From Octopus vulgaris (Eukaryota), in assembly GCA_951406725.2 (NCBI GenBank), contig OX597816.1:169384001-169448000 (forward strand): 64,000 nt of DNA. The letters are read 5' to 3'. The translations under genes and the position numbers were made by a program. Below are positions 1,153 to 59,473 of this stretch, piece after piece (position 1 is the stretch's first letter; every line of letters begins with the position of its first letter). The notes beneath the pieces were generated by a model. It had not been told where the DNA came from, did not search any database, and saw only the letters and a program-made list of their open reading frames with translations.

Positions 1153-1294
1153 TATCACCTCGTTACCTTCAAAATTAATAATGATTTCAAATTTAGACAC
1201 AAGGCCTGTAAGTTTAGGGGAGGGGGAGAGTCAATTACATCGACTCTAGTGTTCATCTGGCACTTGTTTTATCGACCTCTGAACAGATGAAAGG

Positions 1295-1420
1295 ATTGGG
1301 AAATATACACCGCCGGAAGTTGTTGTTGACAAACAACGGCAGTAATTTTATTCAGCTGAATACACGTCATTGATTGGTTGAAATTATCGAAATACAACAA
1401 ATTTAGCACGAAATAACTTC
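1295..1420 (-). mobile_element. Internal fragment of the 28202-28824 MITE family
   Basis: Matches reverse complement of ~28350-28460. Confidence 0.6.
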
Positions 1421-1930
1421 GTAACTGGTACTTATTTAATCGACCCCGAAAGAATGAAAGGCAAAGTCGACCTCGGTGGAATTTGAACTCAGAAGGTAGC
1501 GACTGGTGAAATATCTATTTCTTTACTACCCACAAGGGGCTAAACACAGAGAGAAAAAACAAGGACAGACAAACGGATTAAGTCGATTATATTGACCCCA
1601 GTGCGTAACTGGTACTTATTTAATCGAACCCGAAGGATGAAAGGCAAAGTCGATCTCGGCAGAATTTGAACTCAGGACGTAGCGGCAGACGAAATACCTA
1701 TTTCTTTACGACCCAAAAGGGGCTAAACAAAGAGAGGATAAACAAGGAAAGACAAATGGATTAAGTTGATTACATCAACCCCAGTGCGTAACTGGTACTT
1801 ATTTAATCGACCCCGAAAGGATGAAAGGCAAATTCAACCTTGGCGGAATTTGAACTCAGAATGTAACGGCAGACGAAATACGGCTACGCATTTCGCCCGG
1901 CGTGCACCGATTCTGTCAGCTCGTCGCCTT
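1421..1930 (-). mobile_element. SINE family C with tandem ~180-190-bp internal units
   Basis: Three successive ggtacttatttaatcga...aaaggcaaa...gaatttgaactcag units. Confidence 0.8.
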
Positions 1931-2154
1931 ATACCGACTCTAGGAATAATATTTATTTCTATTTTCGGAGATTTTATCAGCAGTTTATCTGAAAGGTGGA
2001 ATTTATACAATATTCATATGACAACTAGAAGAATATATGAGCTTTTGGCATCAACATTTACACTGATATCATCAACACAATTTTGGCAAACACTTCATGA
2101 CTAGCCATCAACTATAACTGTAATTTATTCGTTACTTACCAGAAATATTACACA

Positions 2155-2241
<87 letters not shown>

Positions 2242-2263
2242 GTCTATCTATGTATCTATCTAT
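2155..2263. repeat. (ATCT)n microsatellite
   Basis: Direct observation. Confidence 0.95.
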
Positions 2264-2557
2264 CCGTGTTTTCTTTAAATATTTATATCTCTTGAAATTT
2301 TAGCTGGCCAGCTATACTTTCAAGAGATACAAATAATTTAAAGAAAACACGATATATATAGCAATAATAATTCTCTAAAAGAGATATAGACAGTAACTGC
2401 TCGATAACATAAGGGACTAAAGCCATCTGAATATGGCTAGGGACAGGGCAGGGTGGTGTTACTGTTGCATTTAGCCCCAGGCGAACATCGACGTCGCCAG
2501 ATAGGCCCGACACCGTCACGGTGTCCTTTAACCTGCAAAGGGAGATAATTCTCCGAT

Positions 2558-2631
2558 GAAGCGGAAACCACACACGGACCATGGTTTCAAGGTGTATTGC
2601 CTATCGTCAACGTGTGGTAGGCCTCCGCTTC
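2558..2631 (-). ncRNA. Minimal type I hammerhead ribozyme, UUGACGA core
   Basis: CACACG-UUGACGA-U-AGG-CAAUACA-CCU-U-GAAA-CCAUGG-UC-CGUGUG with extended stem I. Confidence 0.75.
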
Positions 2632-2917
2632 CTCGACGAATTCTCACTCTGCAGGATATTCACATATAGATTTTCAAGCAAAATACATTTGCTGATTTCG
2701 AAAATCTGTTCGACAGCAATAATAATTCTCTAAAAGAGATATAGACAGTAACTTCTCGATAACATAAGGGACTAAAGCCATCTGAATATGGCTAGGGACA
2801 GGGAAGGGTGGTGGGGGTGTTACTGTTGCATTTAGCCCCAGGCGAACATCGACGTCGCCAGATAGGCCCAACACCGTCACGGTGTCCTTTAACCTGCAAA
2901 GGGAGATAATTCCCCGA

Positions 2918-2989
2918 TGAAGCGGAAACACACACGGACCATGGTTTCGGTCGTATTGCCTATCGTCAACGTGTGGTAGGCCCCGCTTC
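2918..2989 (-). ncRNA. Minimal hammerhead ribozyme, second tandem copy with altered stem II
   Basis: CACACG-UUGACGA-UAGGCAAUACGACC-GAAA-CCAUGG-UC-CGUGUG. Confidence 0.65.
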
Positions 2990-3067
2990 CTCGACGAATT
3001 CTCACTCTGCAGGATATTCATATAGAAATCTATATATGAATATCCTGCAGAGTGAGAATCCGTCGAG

Positions 3068-3141
3068 GAAGCGGAGGCCTACCACACGTTGACGATAGGC
3101 AATACACCTTGAAACCATGGTCCGTGTGTGGTTTCCGTTTC
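3068..3141 (+). ncRNA. Minimal hammerhead ribozyme, inverted copy
   Basis: Stem I 3083-3088/3123-3128, core 3089-3095, GAAA 3111-3114, CCATGG 3115-3120, predicted cut after 3122. Confidence 0.75.
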
Positions 3142-3578
3142 ATCGGGGAATTATCTCCCTTTGCAGGTTAAAGGACACCGTGACGGTGTCGGGCCTATCT
3201 GGCGACGTCGATGTTCGCCTGGGGCTAAATGCAACAGTAACACCCCCACCACCCTGCCCTGTCCCTAGCCATATTCAGATGGCTTTAGTCCCTTATGTTA
3301 CGATATATATATATATATATATCGTGTTTTGTAATAATATTTTTAACTCCTGAAATTATAGTTGGTGAAATTGATTATACGTACGTTTGCCTATGCAATG
3401 TCCAGGAAGTTTATTCCTCCTTTGTATATCAACTACAGTAAGTCGTTGTGGTATCATATACATGATAAGCGTTTCGTTTGCGCGTTGTTCAGAATGCAAA
3501 TAATACTTTGTGTATAGTATGTTTATGCATACCATGCATAAATACGACCTTTTCACGTAGTACCAATATCATGCTATA

Positions 3579-3980
3579 GTGGAGGCGCAATGGACCAGTG
3601 GTTAGGGCAGCGGACTCGCGGTCATAGGATCGCGGTTTCGATTCCCAGACCGGGCATTGTGAGTGTTTATTGAGCGAAAACACCTAAAAGCTCCACGAGG
3701 TTCCGGCAGGGGATGGTGGTGATCCCTGCTGTACTCATTCACCACAACTTTCTCTCACTCTTACTTCCTGTTTCTGTTGTACCTGTATTTCAAGGGGCCG
3801 GCCTTGTCACACCCTGTGTCACGCTGAATATCCCCAAGAACTACGTTAAGGGTGCACGTGTCTGTGGAGTGCTCAGCCACTTACACGTTAATTTCACGAG
3901 CATGCTGTTCCGTTGATTCGGATCAACCGGAACCCTCATCGTCGTTACCGACGGAGTGCTTCCATTGCTTCCATCCATCC
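3579..3980 (+). mobile_element. tRNA-derived SINE family A, full length
   Basis: A box (tggaccagtggttagg), B box (ggtttcgattccc), (TCCA)n tail, 11-bp TSD atcatgctata. Confidence 0.9.
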
Positions 3981-4244
3981 ATCATGCTATAACTATTTTA
4001 GTATAGCTACTTTAATAGTTTGATATCTCTCACTCGCAACATTTTCGCATCTCAGTAAAAAGAATCCAAAAAACACTGTGGTTTCTTATGCAGTTTAAGT
4101 GCACAAAGTAAAGTTCTTGAGTAAATATGCGGATGATATTGGAAATAATACTGCGTAAGCAACTCCCAAAGGCCACAGGTCACCGTCGTGACAGTAACGA
4201 TAAAAGGAGATACCACTAGTTTCAAACTCAATAATAATTAAAAT

Positions 4245-4487
4245 AATAATGGTTTCAAATTTTGGTACAAGGCCAGCAATTTTAGGGGACAGAAAAAAAA
4301 ATCGATTACATCGACCCCAAAGTTTCACTGATAGTTATTTCACCGACCCCGAAAGGATGAAAGGCAAAGTCAACTTCGGCGGAATCTCGACTCAGAGCGT
4401 AAAACCGGAAGAAATGCCACTAAGAAATTTGTACGGCGTGCTAACGATTCTGCCAGCTGGCCGCCTTAATAACAATGATAATAATAA

Positions 4488-17402: not shown

Positions 17403-17879
17403 TGTATTCATGTATATACGTATTCAGAATCTGTTTCTCCTTTTGTTTGACCAAAGCAAAATCAATTTGATTCAATGTTTGGATCGTCGATGCATCCAGA
17501 TTGTTTTCTATATCAGATGTGTGAATATGATATTTGTGATAGTAAGTTCCTGCTGTTTTGCGCCGTTTGAGTGATCTTTTCCGTTACCATGCGAGCCGAC
17601 AATGTCATGCCAAATATTACAATCTGCTCCTACCCTAGCATTGAAGTCTCCCAGCGAAATCTATTTCTCACTTTTATATACTGTGAGGACCTTAATCAGT
17701 CTGGTGTAGAATTGTCTTCGTTCTTCCCTCTGAATAGTTGATTGTTGGGGCATAAGCACTTACCAGAGTAAGAAATTTCTTTTCGTGTAGCGGTATGCGG
17801 AAGCACAGGTGGCTCTCATAAGCAAGGAGAGGATTTTGAGTAAGGTTGTTGAACAGTTTAGTCTTGACAGCATATGTTA

Positions 17880-28201: not shown

Positions 28202-28824
28202 GAATCTTTACCTTTTGACCGACAGATTTAAAAATATATGATCTTTTGTAACTAAACACTTTCAAACTTCGGACACTGGTAGTATGTGTCATATAAATCA
28301 TCTTTTACTCTTAGCGTTTTTGAGAAAAGCTTATATTTAGGAAGTTATTTCACGTTAAAGTAGTAGTATTTCGGTAATTTCAACCAATCAATGACGTGTA
28401 TTCAGATGAATAAAATTACTGCTGTTGTTTGTCAACAAGAAATATCGGCGGTGTATTTTTCATTTGTCACTGTTATTTATGACATCATTCGTGTTTTTAT
28501 ACTTTAGGGTTTTAGGGTTAGGGTTTTAGGGTTAGGGTGTTAGGGTTAGGGTGTTAGGGTTAGGATTTTAGGGTTAGGGTTTTAGGGTTAGGGTTTTAGG
28601 GTTAGGGTTAGGGTTTTATGGTTAGCTGAATAAGTCATTGATTGGTTGAAATTACCGAAATACTACAACTTTAACGTGAAAAAACTTCCTAAATATAAGC
28701 TTTTCTCAAAAACGCTAAGAGTAAAAGATGTTTTATATGACACATTCTACAATTGTCCGAAGTTTGAAAGAGTTTAGTTACAAAAAATGATTTTTTAAAT
28801 CTGTCGGTCAAAAGGTAAAGATCC
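28202..28824. mobile_element. Merlin-type foldback MITE carrying a ~120-bp degenerate (TTAGGG)n array
   Basis: ~190-bp TIRs; exact 8-bp TSD tgcttttc; array at 28504-28625. Confidence 0.85.
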
Positions 28825-38833: not shown

Positions 38834-38886
<53 letters not shown>

Positions 38887-39320
38887 TCGCCATACTAATA
38901 TGGCATTCTTATAAAAATAAGAAAAAAGCTGTCCGCTTATTAGCTCCATGAGGCCATCGCCTTAAGTTAGCTATTTGATACACAAACTGTATCCATATAA
39001 CCTTCGAACAAGGGAGGTCAGTCGCTCCACACTACTTGACCGGCAGCTATATGTTCGAAGGTTATATGGATACAGTTTGTGTATCAAATAGCTAACTTAA
39101 GGCGATGACCTCATGGAGCTAATAAGCGGACATTTTTTCTTATTTTTATAAGAATGCCATATAAGTATGGCGATAACTATTATTTTCCGGGAACGCTGCC
39201 GCTGTTCTCTTTTAGAGAGACTTAGTTATTTTAATATTTCTATTATTGAAAACAAGTGGATGTATTCCACCGAAACTAGGTAAATAAAACCATCGAACAG
39301 AGATTGTCGGAAGCGACACC

Positions 39321-39389
39321 TACTGGCTGGCTACGCTGCATTGAAAAGGGGCAATACCCTGAAACGCGTCTGTAGCTGCCGGTCAAGTA
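39321..39389 (+). ncRNA. Minimal type I hammerhead ribozyme, U3-A8 core
   Basis: GCUGCA-UUGAAAA-GGGG-CAAUA-CCCU-GAAA-CGCG-UC-UGUAGC; predicted cut after 39370. Confidence 0.8.
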
Positions 39390-39682
39390 GTGTGGAGCGA
39401 CTGACCTCCCTTGTTCGAAGGTTATATGGATACAGTTTGTGTATCAAATAGCTAACTTAAGGCGATGGCCTCATGGAGCTAATAAGCGGACAGCTTTTTT
39501 CTTATTTTTATAAGAATGCCATATTAGTATGGCGATAACTATTATTTTCCGGGAACGCTGCCGCTGTTCTCTTTTAGAGAGACTTAGTTATTTTAATATT
39601 TCTATTATTGAAAACAAGTGGATGTATTCCACCGAAACTAGGTAAATAAAACCATCGAACAGAGATTGTCGGAAGCGACACC

Positions 39683-39751
39683 TACTGGCTGGCTACGCTG
39701 CATTGAAAAGGGGCAATACCCTGAAACGCGTCTGTAGCTGCCGGTCAAGTA
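39683..39751 (+). ncRNA. Minimal type I hammerhead ribozyme, second identical copy
   Basis: Same sequence 362 bp downstream; predicted cut after 39732. Confidence 0.8.
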
Positions 39752-39963
39752 GTGTGGAGCGACTGACCTCCCTTGTTCGAAGGTTATATGGATATAGTTT
39801 GTGTATCAAATAGCTAACTTAAGGCGATGGCCTCATGGAGCTAATAAGCGGACAGCTTTTTCTTATTTTTATAAGAATGCCATATTAGTATGGCGATAAC
39901 TATTATTTTCCGGGAACGCTGCCGCTGTTCTCTTTTAGAGAGACTTAGTTATTTTAATATTTC

Positions 39964-40000
<37 letters not shown>

Positions 40001-41134: not shown

Positions 41135-41474
41135 ATATATATGCGCGTATGTAGACAAAAAGTTATGTACATATGTTAATATATATAAGTGAACAGATAT
41201 ACTTGCATATATAGTTAGTATTGTATACGCAATTGAGAACATACCAAATGCTTTAGCTCACAGACGCACACACATGCGCACCTGCGCACCTTCGCTCATG
41301 CCGACATATAAATTTGCACAGACATGCAGATATATTGTATTAAACTTTCCTCTGCATTTGTATTATTCAGTTTATATAAACTTCTGCAGTGTTCTTTTTT
41401 TCTTTTCTATTTCTCCAGATATTAATTTAACTGCTATATGGAAAAGACACATTGCAGATTTCAGAAAAAAAAAA

Positions 41475-42309
41475 ATGATGAATTTATCGGAAAAATATAT
41501 TGTGCTAATAATTATATTTCTTGGCCAATACGCAAGGCGTTGCACAGTGAACGAGCAATCATACGAATTTGCAAATATTACAATGGATGGTGATTACATA
41601 ATAGATTTTGTTCTTTCAATCCACGAAGGAAACCGTCCGGATGAAGATACTGTCATCAGCGTTGATAATGTAGTAGCCGTTGAAGCAATAATTTCAGCCA
41701 TCGAATATATTAATGAGGATGCCTCACTTTTGTCTAATGTGTCTCTTGGATATGTGATTCATGACGATTTCAACAGCCCGCAGCAAGTTTCTGCAATAGC
41801 CATGAAGCTGTCACAACGTATCCTGTCGAACAGTTTATTGACTAGTGGGTATCAGCTCTGTCCGAATAAGAGTAATGGTTGTAGTCAATCAGAAGCAAAC
41901 TTTTCCATTGTTACCGAGTCACACTCTTTCAGTAACGTTAACATTACACAAAGCACAAATTCAGACAATAAATTGAGTAATGAAAACGACGTGGAATTTA
42001 GCGAGAAAAATTACTATAATGACGATGCAAAGGATACTTCAATTTCTCAAAAGCCCGTTGTTGCTGTTGTAGGCAGCAGCACGAGCGATACCACAGTAAG
42101 TTTAGCAATGAATTTGCAGCTGCTCGGCATACCCATTGTCGGGTGTATGGCAACAAGTAACGTTTTCCAGCGATGGCTTTATTTTCCAAATTTCATTCGA
42201 GTGGTTCCGTCTGACAAATTTCAAGCCCAAGCAATCTTTGACATCATTGTCTACTTTGAATGGAGCTACATCTTCGTACTTACGTCTAACAATTATTATG
42301 GACTGGAAG
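41475..42309 (+). CDS. First coding exon of a class C GPCR (mGluR/CaSR-like Venus-flytrap domain)
   Basis: Signal peptide, MDGDYII, VEAIISAIEYIN..LLSNVSLGYVIHD, VVAVVGSSTS, FIRVVPSDKFQAQAIFDIIVYFEWSY, YYG; acceptor ttctccag at 41418, donor G|gtaaat at 42309/42310. Confidence 0.9.
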
Positions 42310-42419
42310 GTAAATATGAAAGCAGAATTTACACACGCTTTGCATTAATAAATCAAAATGTTGTTTTTATGTTATGTTATTTAGCAGTGTTTATTTTATT
42401 TCTTATTCTTTTATTGTTA

Positions 42420-42641
42420 TATTTGTTTCAGTCGTTTGACTGCAGCTATACTGGAGCACCGTCTTTAGTCGAACAAATCGCCCCCAGGACTTTGTAAGCC
42501 TAGTACTCAATCTATCGGTCTCTTTTGCTGAACCGCTAAGTTACAGGGACGTAAACATACCAACATCGGTTGTCAAGCGATGGTGGGGGGACAAACATAG
42601 ACACACAAACACACACACACACGCACGCGCGCACACACACG

Positions 42642-42989: not shown

Positions 42990-43860
42990 GAGCAGCTGAA
43001 TTTAGAGGTGGGAGATAATGTTGAGCAAGAGCCAAAGTGTGGATGAACTGCAACTAACACCACCGACGAAAACATTGATCGTATTCACCACATGCTAATG
43101 GATGACAGGCCCTTGACTATACATCAAATATCCAATGCTATTAGCATATCCTATGAGATAGTTGAAAATATTGTGTAAAATGAACTTTGTATGATGAACC
43201 TTTTTGCTCGGTTCATAAGGGCACCAGGTTGATCATGTCACAGGAAAACCTGACATTATTCCAGGCAGATCCAACTGGTTCCCTTGATCGTTTCCTAAGC
43301 CAAGATGAATGTTGGATTTATCACTTTCAGCCAGAGACAATAAGACAATCCATGCAGAGAAAAGAGACAATCTACTCCTCTTCACCTGTTCCAAAGAAGG
43401 CCAAGTTCGTTTCATCTGCAAGGTAGGTGACGGACTCAGTTTTGAGGATGCAAAATACATTGTGCTTATTGACTATCTTCAAAAGGGCCACACCATCAAC
43501 GGAAAGTACTATGCCAACTTGCTGAGGCTGTTACGAAAGGCTATCAAGACCAAAAGCCCTGGAAAACTGACGAAACGAGTCTTGTTTCATTAAGACAATG
43601 CTTCAGTACACAAGTTTTTGGTTTCAGTGGTTGTGTGCGACTGTAGCTTTGAACTGATCGATCGCACTCCAAATTCCTCTGATTTTTCCCTATCTGACTA
43701 TCATCTGTTCCCTAATATGAAAGACCATTTGACTGGGAATCAGTATCGCAATGATGATGACTTCATATCTGCTTGTTGATGACATTTTTAGCAACAGAGT
43801 GAAAGTGTCTCCACCAATGGGATCCAAGCAATGTAACACCGACGGAAGATGTCTGTAGAC
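42990..43860 (+). mobile_element. Decayed mariner transposon
   Basis: SQDECWIYHF, IDYLQKGHTINGKYY, DNA and DYHLFP motifs. Confidence 0.85.
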
Positions 43861-46871: not shown

Positions 46872-47912
46872 AGGCAGCGAGCTGGCAGAATCGTTCCCAC
46901 GCCGGGCAAAATGCTTAGCGGTATTTCGTCTACCTTTACGTTCTGAGTTCAAATTCCGCCGAGGTCGACTTTGCTTTTCATCATTTCAGAGTCGATTAAA
47001 TAAGTACCAGTTACGCACTGGGGTCGATATAATCGACTCAACCCGTTTGTCTCCCCTTGTTTGTCCTCTCTGTGTTTAGCCCCTTGTGGGTAGTAAAGAA
47101 ATAGGTATTTCGTCTGCAGTTACGTTCTGAGTTCAAATTCCACCGAGGTCAACTTTGCCTTTCATCTTTTCGGGGTCGATAAATTAAGTACGAGTTACGC
47201 ACTGGGGTCGATGTAATCGACTTAATCTGTTTGTCTGTTCTTGTTTGTCCCCTCTATGTCTAACCCCTTGTGGGTAATAAAGAAATAGTTATTTCGTCTG
47301 TCTTTACGTTCTGAGTTCAAATTCCGCCGAGGTCGACTTTGCCTTTCATCCTTTCGGGTTCGATAAATTAAGTACGATTTACGCACTGATGTCGATTACA
47401 TCGACATAATCCCTTTGTCTGTCCTTGTTTGTCCCCTCTATATTTAGCCCCTTGTGGGCAATAAAGAAATAAGAAACGTTAGCACTCCGGGCGTAATGCT
47501 TAGCGGTATTTCGTTTGTCTAGGGTGGTGTAACTGGCAGAATCGTTAGCACGCCGGGCTAAATGCGTAGCCGTATTTCGTCTGCCGTTACGTTCTGAGTT
47601 CAAATCCCGCCGAGGTCGACTTTGCCTTTCATCCTTTCGAGGTCGATAAATTAAGTACCAGTTATGCATTGGGGTCGATATAATCGACTTAATCAGTTTG
47701 TCTGTCCTTGTTTGTCCTCTCTGTATTTAGCCCCTTGTGGCTAGTAAAGAAATAGGTATTTCGTCTGTCTTTACGTTCTGAGTGCGAAATCCGCCATGGT
47801 CGACTTTGCCTTTCATCTTTTCGGGGTCGATAAATTAAGTACTGAGGTCGACCTAATCGATTGGCTCCCTCTCCAAAAATTTCGGGTTTTGTACATGGAG
47901 TAGAAAAGAATA
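46872..47912 (+). mobile_element. Family C SINE cluster with ~5 tandem core units
   Basis: ~185-bp unit gtatttcgtc...aaagaaatag repeated. Confidence 0.85.
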
Positions 47913-58217: not shown

Positions 58218-58606
58218 TACCCGCCGAGCTTAAGCATATTGCTAAGCGGTGGAAAAGAAATAAACCAGGATTCCCTAAGTGATGGCGAGTGAACCGGGAG
58301 AAGCTTAACACGGAATCTCGTCGGCCGCGCCGGTCCTCAAGAGCTGTGGCGCAAGGTTCGTACACGGTCGATCGTTTCACCCTGCTAGGTTCGGAGTCCC
58401 CTCGATCGGAACTGCCAGAGCGGGTGCTAGGCCCGTTTGGAGCCGGAGGCGATCGGCGACGTTCTTCGGTCCGAGAGTCAGGCTGCTCGGAAACGCCGCC
58501 CAAAGCGGGTGGTTAGCTCCATCTAAGGCTAAATACGGTGAGAACTTCGATAGCCGACAAGTACCGCGAGGGAAAGTTGAAAAGAACTTTGGAGAGAGAG
58601 TTCAAG
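58218..58606 (+). pseudogene. 28S rRNA 5' end/D1 fragment
   Basis: acccgccgagcttaagcatat...gcgagtgaa...caagtaccgcgagggaaagttgaaaagaactttggagagagagttcaag. Confidence 0.9.
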
Positions 58607-58612
58607 TCTGCT

Positions 58613-58706
58613 TTCGACTCGGACGAGACTACTCACGGAACTCCAGCATATCACTAAACGAAGGAAAAGCAACCATCCGGGATTCCCTAAGTAACAGCGA
58701 GTGAGC
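58613..58706 (+). pseudogene. Second, more diverged 28S rRNA 5'-end fragment
   Basis: gacgagactac...agcatatcactaaacgaaggaaaag...ggattccctaagtaacagcgagtga. Confidence 0.75.
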
Positions 58707-59473
58707 AATCTGACGGCTGACTGAAAAGAAAAAAAATTAGGAAAAGCCAAAATGTTATTGTGCAGCTTTGTGATGCTAAAGAAACTCTTGATATAGTAAT
58801 TAGCGTAGGAGCTTGAAGGTGGAGTGAGAATACGGCGGAAAAGGAAATGAATTAAATTAATGTAGCGAATACATTTGGGCGGACTTAATATGCAAACAGT
58901 TATCTTAAAAGATCAGAAACTCTTGTAGTTGTGGCAGAGAAGATAAGGAAGAGAAATAAGTTTACATACTATTAAATGTCAAAACAAGTTTCTTCTAGTT
59001 TACAATGTTCATAGTTTTTCCAATTGACATTAATGGGAAGAAACACTTCAAGACTCAAAATAAAATAAAATTACGCTCCTTGTAAAATGTCTGCTTTTAA
59101 GTCTAAAGAAAAATTCAAAGTGTGATTTTTAATATCTTCTTGATTGTGACTGTATTTTTAAATCATTTTCTAAATCGCAAGACGTCTCAAGCAATATGAC
59201 AATTGCAGCTGGTTTTTGCAATCATTTCTTTGCTGTCATTGTTATTTCATTTTTGGCTTCTCTGACATGAGTACATTATGTAACACACATTAACTTTACA
59301 TGTCCGCTTGTATCTAAACCAACGGAATGCTCTTAGCATATTTTTTATGTATGTATGTATGTGTGTATGTATGTATGTATGTATGTATGTATGTATGTAT
59401 GTATGTATGTATGTATGTATGTATGTATGTATGTATGTATGTATGTGTGTGTATGTATGTATGTATGTATGTA

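Follow-up and report, generated by a model that had tools for sequence, protein, structure and literature searches.

The loops common to two hammerhead ribozyme families of Octopus vulgaris, here called A and B, are best read as the docking module usual in canonical type I hammerheads of animals; a single ancestor probably passed it to both families, and selection for fast self-cleavage has probably preserved it (probability about 0.8). The window, that is, the whole 64,000-nucleotide stretch analyzed here, contains five copies, three of family A and two of family B, and the observed layer of the evidence consists of the motifs, covarying helices, collinear monomers, and an identical insertion layout. 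The A and B ribozymes are new; the loop contact is already known. No published description of either family was found in the text (figures aside) of the literature searched on octopus Penelope elements and hammerheads.

Detection of the hammerheads

A relaxed hammerhead descriptor applied to both strands of the window returned six candidates: three in family A (2571 to 2616 and 2931 to 2975 on the minus strand and 3083 to 3128 on the plus strand), two in family B (39335 to 39376 and 39697 to 39738, plus strand), and one at 43770 to 43830, which was dropped because a covariance model did not recover it. The Rfam hammerhead families RF00163 and RF02275 gave no match at gathering in the window, and no Rfam hammerhead match was obtained in the A or B array even at E values up to 10, the U that opens each core (UUGACGA in A and UUGAAAA in B) being the most likely reason. 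Rfam matches to microRNAs were inverted-repeat hairpins, all below gathering, and were rejected.

Family A

The first copy (3079 to 3130, plus strand; 35.2 bits with a covariance model built from outside sequences) reads, in order, CUAC, CACACG, UUGACGA, UAGG-CAAUACA-CCUU, GAAA, CCAUGG, UC, CGUGUG, and UG. Its parts are as follows: the closing C3079; the bulge UAC (3080 to 3082); helix I (3083 to 3088 with 3123 to 3128); the core UUGACGA (3089 to 3095), with U3·G8; helix II (3096 to 3110), with a U·U base, 3 bp, and the loop CAAUACA (3100 to 3106); GAAA (3111 to 3114); the palindrome ACCAUGGU (3114 to 3121); a predicted cut after C3122; U3129; and the closing G3130. Pairing of C3079 with G3130 was predicted by folding (P = 0.98), and this pair belongs to a 12-bp distal extension of helix I (3068 to 3141, plus strand) that closes a UAC/U internal loop. 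The second copy (2569 to 2620, minus strand; 34.1 bits) has the same ribozyme sequence. The middle copy (2929 to 2979, minus strand; 25.1 bits) has an altered helix II 3' strand, so that at most 2 bp are possible there and folding gave no stable helix II; this copy is possibly impaired.

For loop 2, the 7-nt register CAAUACA folded at -0.5 kcal/mol, compared with +4.1 and +6.8 kcal/mol for 5-nt registers, and the 5-nt CAAUA register was dropped on that ground. Helix II of family A thus has a U·U plus 3 bp instead of about 4 bp with G10.1-C11.1, and its 3-8 pair is U3·G8; all other hammerhead core positions match. A U3·G8 pair is expected to lower hammerhead activity; the term “U3-G8” was not found in the hammerhead literature searched. 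Given U3·G8, the U·U helix II base, and the 7-nt loop 2, family A may cleave slowly or not at all. Its active core does not form in the minimum-energy fold, and the plus-strand copy lies within an arm of a 96% inverted repeat; with the weakening features, this placement means that the copy at 3079 to 3130 may be slow or masked.

Family B

The two B copies, at 39331 to 39378 and, 362 nt downstream, at 39693 to 39740 (both plus strand), each scored 31.1 bits with the same model and read CUAC, GCUGCA, UUGAAAA, and GGGG-CAAUA-CCCU in the 5' half and GAAA, CGCG, UC, UGUAGC, and UG in the 3' half. The first copy comprises CUAC (39331 to 39334), helix I (39335 to 39340 with 39371 to 39376), the core UUGAAAA, helix II (39348 to 39360; 4 bp, with the loop CAAUA at 39352 to 39356), the palindrome ACGCGU (39364 to 39369), a predicted cut after C39370, U39377, and G39378. 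Pairing of C39331 with G39378 was predicted (P = 0.99). The 3-8 pair is U3-A8, a described natural variant, and the other core positions match.

Variation within family B was followed in contigs of four public sequencing runs, three of them deep, aligned to one monomer. The family is multicopy and dispersed, with 1156 to 4279 contigs per run in three runs and joints going back 355 to 361 nt. Variants reaching at least 3% in some run were present at 23 of 361 positions. None lay in the 13 core letters, and the nine loop letters held one variant row versus 0.6 expected by chance, a comparison without power to show whether the loops vary freely; this lone loop variant, A>G at 39333, had frequencies of 4.8%, 0%, and 0.3% in runs X1, X3, and X4, respectively. 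Five helix changes (39338, 39358, 39360, 39379, and 39383) reached 3% or more in two or three of the deep runs, and every one of them preserved pairing. Pair-breaking rows at 39324 and 39327 were single contigs each, and G>A at 39330, which breaks its pair unless linked to 39379, stood at 1.5 to 2.4% in two runs and was dominant in a depth trough of the third. U39360 is private to the window locus: it makes a G·U in the window copies, and about 99% of the family depth (three runs) has C, so that at the level of the family the pair is the canonical G10.1-C11.1.

Family B was present in 20 rows of sequencing runs from 10 studies, and no RNA run was listed among them. Run X14, whose RNA status is a guess, held one 392-nt contig going back 361 nt, which fits a circle or a tandem.

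Loops common to both families

In both families, CUAC and UG flank a 6-bp helix I on its 5' and 3' sides, loop 2 starts with CAAUA, helix III is palindromic, and the cut site is GUC; the three helices are arranged round the core in type I order, with helix I open-ended. The letters quoted in the original prediction for the 3-kb and 39-kb sites, and the 6-bp stem I of both, were thus found in place. Of the internal loop CUAC/UG that it proposed, the letters stand and the extent does not, since the C is predicted to pair with the G in A and B (P = 0.98 and 0.99), which leaves UAC/U. Loop 2 begins with CAAUA in both families as it stated, but the loops are not equal; with 5 nt in B and a predicted 7 nt in A, the last A of the A loop is not the same letter of CAAUA. 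Nor do the stems differ completely, as it had held: helix I is identical at 3 of 12 positions, and one C-G pair is common to A and B. Between the families, all six helix I pairs are kept with 9 of 12 letters changed, and the loop and closing letters are identical at 11 of 11 positions. The flanked A and B ribozymes folded better than 200 of 200 shuffles (z = -4.3 and -3.9), and the sequences ACCAUGGU and ACGCGU are self-complementary, giving a short helix III that allows a dimer.

In the Schistosoma hammerhead, the loops are U1C2C3A4:G5U6A7C8 and CAAAUA, and the contact motif consists of IL1.U1, IL1.C8, and L2.A6, with C8 entering loop 2 opposite L2.C1 and the last A pairing with U1 (PMC2632901). 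In A and B, IL1.U1 corresponds to the lone U, IL1.C8 to the C that ends UAC, and L2.A6 to the final A of loop 2, so the likeness to Schistosoma-type loops proposed earlier is borne out by three contact residues known from a crystal structure (PMC2632901). The U 3' of helix I, the last C of the 5' bulge, and the first C and last A of loop 2 are present in five of five copies, the middle A copy being counted under the 2-bp helix II reading.

The Schistosoma mansoni SM-alpha ribozyme (RF00163, Hammerhead_1) resembles A and B in its 6-bp helix I, the 5' UAC and 3' U of its internal loop, a loop 2 of the form CAA...A, a short palindromic helix III, and the GUC cut site. It differs in the bulge flanks (G/C versus C/G in A and B), the internal loop (4 by 4 versus a predicted 3 by 1), the length of loop 2 (6 nt versus 5 nt in B and 7 nt in A), and the core (C3-G8 versus U3-A8 in B and U3·G8 in A); the Hammerhead_1 consensus loop is CAAAUA, and the Rfam model does not detect A or B. 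The consensus of the amniote intronic type I hammerhead RF02275 (Hammerhead_HH9), UUAC...UA with the loop CAAAAA, likewise places UAC ahead of helix I and U behind it and has a loop 2 of the form CAA..A, but its bulge is flanked by U-A instead of C-G, and HH9 has a longer helix III and single conserved loci, in contrast to the tandem repeats of A and B (PMC6155905, in part). Most metazoan hammerheads are described as type I, with a 6-bp helix I, a 4-bp helix II, conserved interacting loop nucleotides, and a short palindromic helix III working as a dimer, and U3-A8 is also reported among them (PMC4209133). In a squid genome, 235 Hammerhead_1 loci are reported (PMC6962438).

The loops could also have been inherited passively and be no longer under selection, family A especially being an inactive ribozyme carried by DNA-level or enzyme-driven copying. 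U3·G8, the U·U helix II base, the 7-nt loop, and the degraded middle copy of A would all suit such a history, as would the location of the plus-strand copy in one 96% inverted-repeat arm, where it would be masked in read-through RNA, and the report that ribozyme mutations of the Poseidon element did not block insertion in vitro (PMC11167929). We nevertheless consider passive inheritance quite improbable, given the 11 identical loop and closing letters beside a helix I that kept its six pairs through nine letter changes, and given that U10.1·U11.1 and U3-A8 occur in natural hammerheads (PMC3088659), the former also in the axolotl ribozyme HHR_Amex2 (PMC7229834).

Outside motifs and covariance model

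Because at most two independent sequences are available in the window, a covariance test on its two families alone would be powerless and was set aside. Instead, metagenome contigs were scanned with a pattern that fixed UAC and the core and left loop 2 and the 3' side free; UAC conservation in this sample is therefore built in. The scan yielded 118 loci from 2 of the 64 parts of the metagenome collection, comprising a hammerhead-like group of 31 (helix I with 5 or 6 of 6 pairs and helix II with 3 or 4 of 4), 63 controls with a poor helix II, and 24 intermediate loci in neither group. Exactly CUAC/UG occurred in 21 of the 31 motifs and in 0 of the 63 controls, a Watson-Crick pair outside the bulge in 25 versus 19, and U after helix I in 27 versus 14; loop 2 started with CAA in 20 versus 2 and with CAAUA in 6 versus 0. 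The 31 motifs form nine clusters, one of them with 21 members, and Fisher counts on these figures overstate independence. The loop set is not special to A and B and is the commonest set in the outside sample.

Twenty-six of the motifs were aligned; L022, L052, L124, and L090, which lack the loop features and are likely chance matches, were left out, as was L132, whose 3' arm is unclear. The last A of loop 2 was present in 26 of 26 sequences, the first base was C in 22 and U in 4, and the fourth position was C in 10, G in 8, U in 7, and A in 1; within loop 2 the U of CAAUA varies freely, with only the last A fixed. The closing pair was mostly C-G in the outside motifs, with G-C, U·G, and U-A also seen; the 3' part of L035 is shifted by 2 columns in the alignment, and its U-A closing pair was therefore counted as U·G. 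As judged from these sequences, CUAC varies at its first C and CAAUA at its U, and mutating these letters would be a poor test of docking. Two-sided changes were found in 13 of 16 pairs (0 of 500 shuffles), a count inflated by kinship.

A covariance model built from the 26 outside sequences alone ranked the five window copies 1 to 5 of 16 matches, with scores of 35.2, 34.1, 31.1, 31.1, and 25.1 bits (rough E values, 2.4e-7 to 1.8e-4), and the next-best match reached 11.3 bits (E = 1.4). Pattern-only loci reach about 26 bits with this model, the level of the weakest A copy, so the assignment of that copy rests on its identity to its siblings. The 11.3-bit match itself (17640 to 17716, minus strand) carries CUAC, CUGAUUA, and GAAA and is possibly a decayed hammerhead, or chance.

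In viral contigs, 4 of 21 matches were hammerhead-like, too few to count. Three contigs of the viral collection (L006, 12 to 103, minus strand; L009, 53 to 135, plus strand; and L016, 53 to 135, plus strand) hold type I hammerheads with the UAC/U bulge and a long stable helix III, scoring 31.9 to 52.2 bits; the loop module is therefore not confined to animals.

Kinship of A and B

Both insertions are head-to-head and two-armed and lie in (TA)n. Family A has a left arm (2360 to 3024, minus strand) with about 1.9 units of a 355- to 360-nt monomer, ending at monomer position 222 beside (TA)n, and an inverted right arm (3026 to 3300, plus strand) with a partial unit, monomer positions 264 to 177, also ending beside (TA)n. 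Family B has a right arm (39052 to 39969, plus strand) with 2.5 units of a 362-nt monomer, ending at monomer position 238 in (TA)n, and an inverted partial unit as its left arm (38880 to 39049, minus strand), monomer positions 3 to 172, which ends in (TA)n. Phased from the cut site, the monomers measure 360 nt (A) and 362 nt (B). They agree with non-LTR retrozymes as defined in PMC7229834: noncoding tandem units within about 170 to 400 nt, each with one type I hammerhead, and two ribozymes in tandem per family.

The best-conserved block between the families (monomer positions 144 to 219 at 2718 to 2793, minus strand, in A and 147 to 222 at 39517 to 39592, plus strand, in B) contains two small hairpins, the first of which, at 39518 to 39533 in B, matches an A hairpin at 3268 to 3283. 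The arms end at monomer positions 222 and 177 in A and 172 and 238 in B, one arm just 3' of each hairpin.

The original prediction had treated the two families as unrelated; the monomer bodies without the ribozyme contradict this. Their global alignment scored 125, versus about 66 to 72 for dinucleotide and local shuffles, and 0 of 1000 shuffles reached 125 in each of four schemes; among 2438 other window stretches, the best scored 110. Body identity was 55%, compared with 48% for shuffles. The best rotation was 0 (score, 168), and 56 rotations more than 40 nt away reached at most 118. Three body segments were reached in score by 10, 0, and 19 of 1000 shuffles; the strongest, monomer positions 141 to 225, had a z of 5.4, with boundaries set after the alignment had been seen, and the flanking segments had z values of 2.6 and 2.4. 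Spacing from the cut site is equal in A and B within 3 nt.

Separate origins of A and B, with the loop module reached by convergence or acquired twice, as first supposed, would accord with the three common letters of 12 in helix I, the differing core variant, helix III, and loop 2 length, the low body identity (55%), and the absence of an A-B match among the blastn matches listed. Similar monomer lengths in the same phase with the best rotation at 0, three body segments each above shuffles, and agreement in both arm end points and in the (TA)n target speak against it; independent origin is largely refuted by this collinearity, and we regard it as very improbable. Under a second alternative, the families are modular chimeras that share an end block of about 80 nt and a generic ribozyme through use of the same Penelope-like enzyme, the rest being unrelated. 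The concentration of signal in monomer positions 141 to 225 and the reported similarity of retrozymes to Penelope-like pLTRs (bioRxiv 10.64898/2026.07.22.740005) lend this some weight, but both flanking segments still exceed shuffles and the spacing from the cut site is constant within 3 nt, and we hold chimerism to be unlikely. Common descent is preferred, A and B likely being sister non-LTR retrozyme families, distant cousins with U3·G8 and U3-A8 cores. Since they are related, their common loops represent retention from a common ancestor. What survives of the proposed selected L1-L2 interaction is a docking module likely kept by selection; the claim of independent evidence from two unrelated families falls.

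Metazoan non-LTR retrozymes (coral, mussel at 350 to 390 bp, and axolotl at 330/350 bp) resemble A and B in being built of short units in tandem, each with one type I hammerhead, in a GC content of 41 to 46%, and in a highly self-paired predicted circle, and HHR_Amex2 of axolotl shares the U·U helix II base of A; the mussel motifs are reported without most archetypal loop contacts, which A and B keep (PMC7229834). The A and B insertions, known from DNA, are two-armed and inverted, unlike those retrozymes. The minimal hammerheads of Penelope-like pLTRs share the U3-A8 core with B and the palindromic helix III and opposite-strand neighbors with both families, but their helix II is long, helix I short, and loop 1 poorly defined, in contrast to the canonical sizes and loops of A and B, and A and B have no open reading frame (ORF) between copies (PMC4209133). 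No reverse transcriptase plus GIY-YIG ORF was found between the arms, both insertions being bounded by (TA)n, and neither a reverse transcriptase family nor a Penelope-like ORF was found in the 8 of 39 ORFs that were scanned.

Proposed mechanism

By analogy with the Schistosoma structure, the C of UAC would flip into loop 2 and face the first C there, and the loop's last A would form a reverse Hoogsteen pair with the lone U 3' of helix I; this docking would hold helices I and II parallel, allowing the core to cut after GUC at a physiological Mg2+ concentration. The C/G flanking the bulge would simply close it, and the interior of loop 2 would be free in length (5, 6, or 7 nt) and sequence. The 2-bp palindromic helix III would be completed by pairing of two ribozymes of a tandem transcript; in folding, the palindromes paired between two molecules (-11.2 and -7.5 kcal/mol) and gave no hairpin within one. 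Released monomers may circularize, and the predicted unit circles are highly self-paired (-110.6 and -121.2, versus -88 and -85 for shuffles). Monomer RNAs could then be reinserted into (TA)n by a Penelope-like reverse transcriptase acting in trans, starting near the two common hairpins. Internal initiation with extension of both strands is reported for a Penelope-like enzyme (PMC11167929), and kinship of retrozymes with pLTRs, which they resemble, has been argued (bioRxiv 10.64898/2026.07.22.740005).

A further scheme is put forward tentatively, as a conjecture that we would not expect to hold in full: one docking module, retained through deep divergence and tolerating a 5- or 7-nt loop 2, might prop up an active hammerhead with a U3·G8 wobble core and a U·U base of helix II, and the 80-nt two-hairpin block might be the site where a Penelope-like reverse transcriptase starts twice per RNA circle, thus writing two-armed insertions.

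Other features of the window

A near-perfect hairpin of about 90 nt (2262 to 2352; -41.8 kcal/mol as folded) adjoins the family A insertion on its left, and the terminal motif of this hairpin recurs inverted at about 3320 to 3332 on the right; small MITE-like elements may thus flank the (TA)n that holds the insertion. The insertion is bracketed by a 335-nt inverted pair (629 to 963 and 3630 to 3964; 96% complementary), probably two young SINE copies; a tRNA-like head was noted by eye before 3630 to 3964, where ARAGORN found no tRNA. The family B array is followed, about 1.2 kb downstream, by a 434-codon open frame (41193 to 42497, plus strand) with an ANF_receptor ligand-binding domain (PF01094; E = 8.8e-26), probably a receptor gene exon.

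A second short-unit repeat family forms tandem arrays of a 183- to 184-nt unit in opposite orientations (1420 to 1881 and 46920 to 47471), in which neither the descriptor nor the covariance model found a hammerhead. A eukaryotic large-subunit rRNA fragment (58220 to 58924, plus strand; 190.7 bits) directly follows an (AT)n run; the match is good only over the first 400 nt or so, a second short rRNA-like piece comes after, and the whole looks like a dispersed rRNA pseudogene. An array of 14-nt units containing TTAGGG (28504 to 28609) is an interstitial telomere-like repeat.

Implications

The loop match is textbook material, and for annotation it matters as confirmation that the A and B repeats are real canonical hammerheads missed by Rfam. 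The A and B pair provides ready constructs for asking how loop 2 length and weak cores are tolerated, and the common end block hints at a sequence that a Penelope-like enzyme may read when copying retrozymes.
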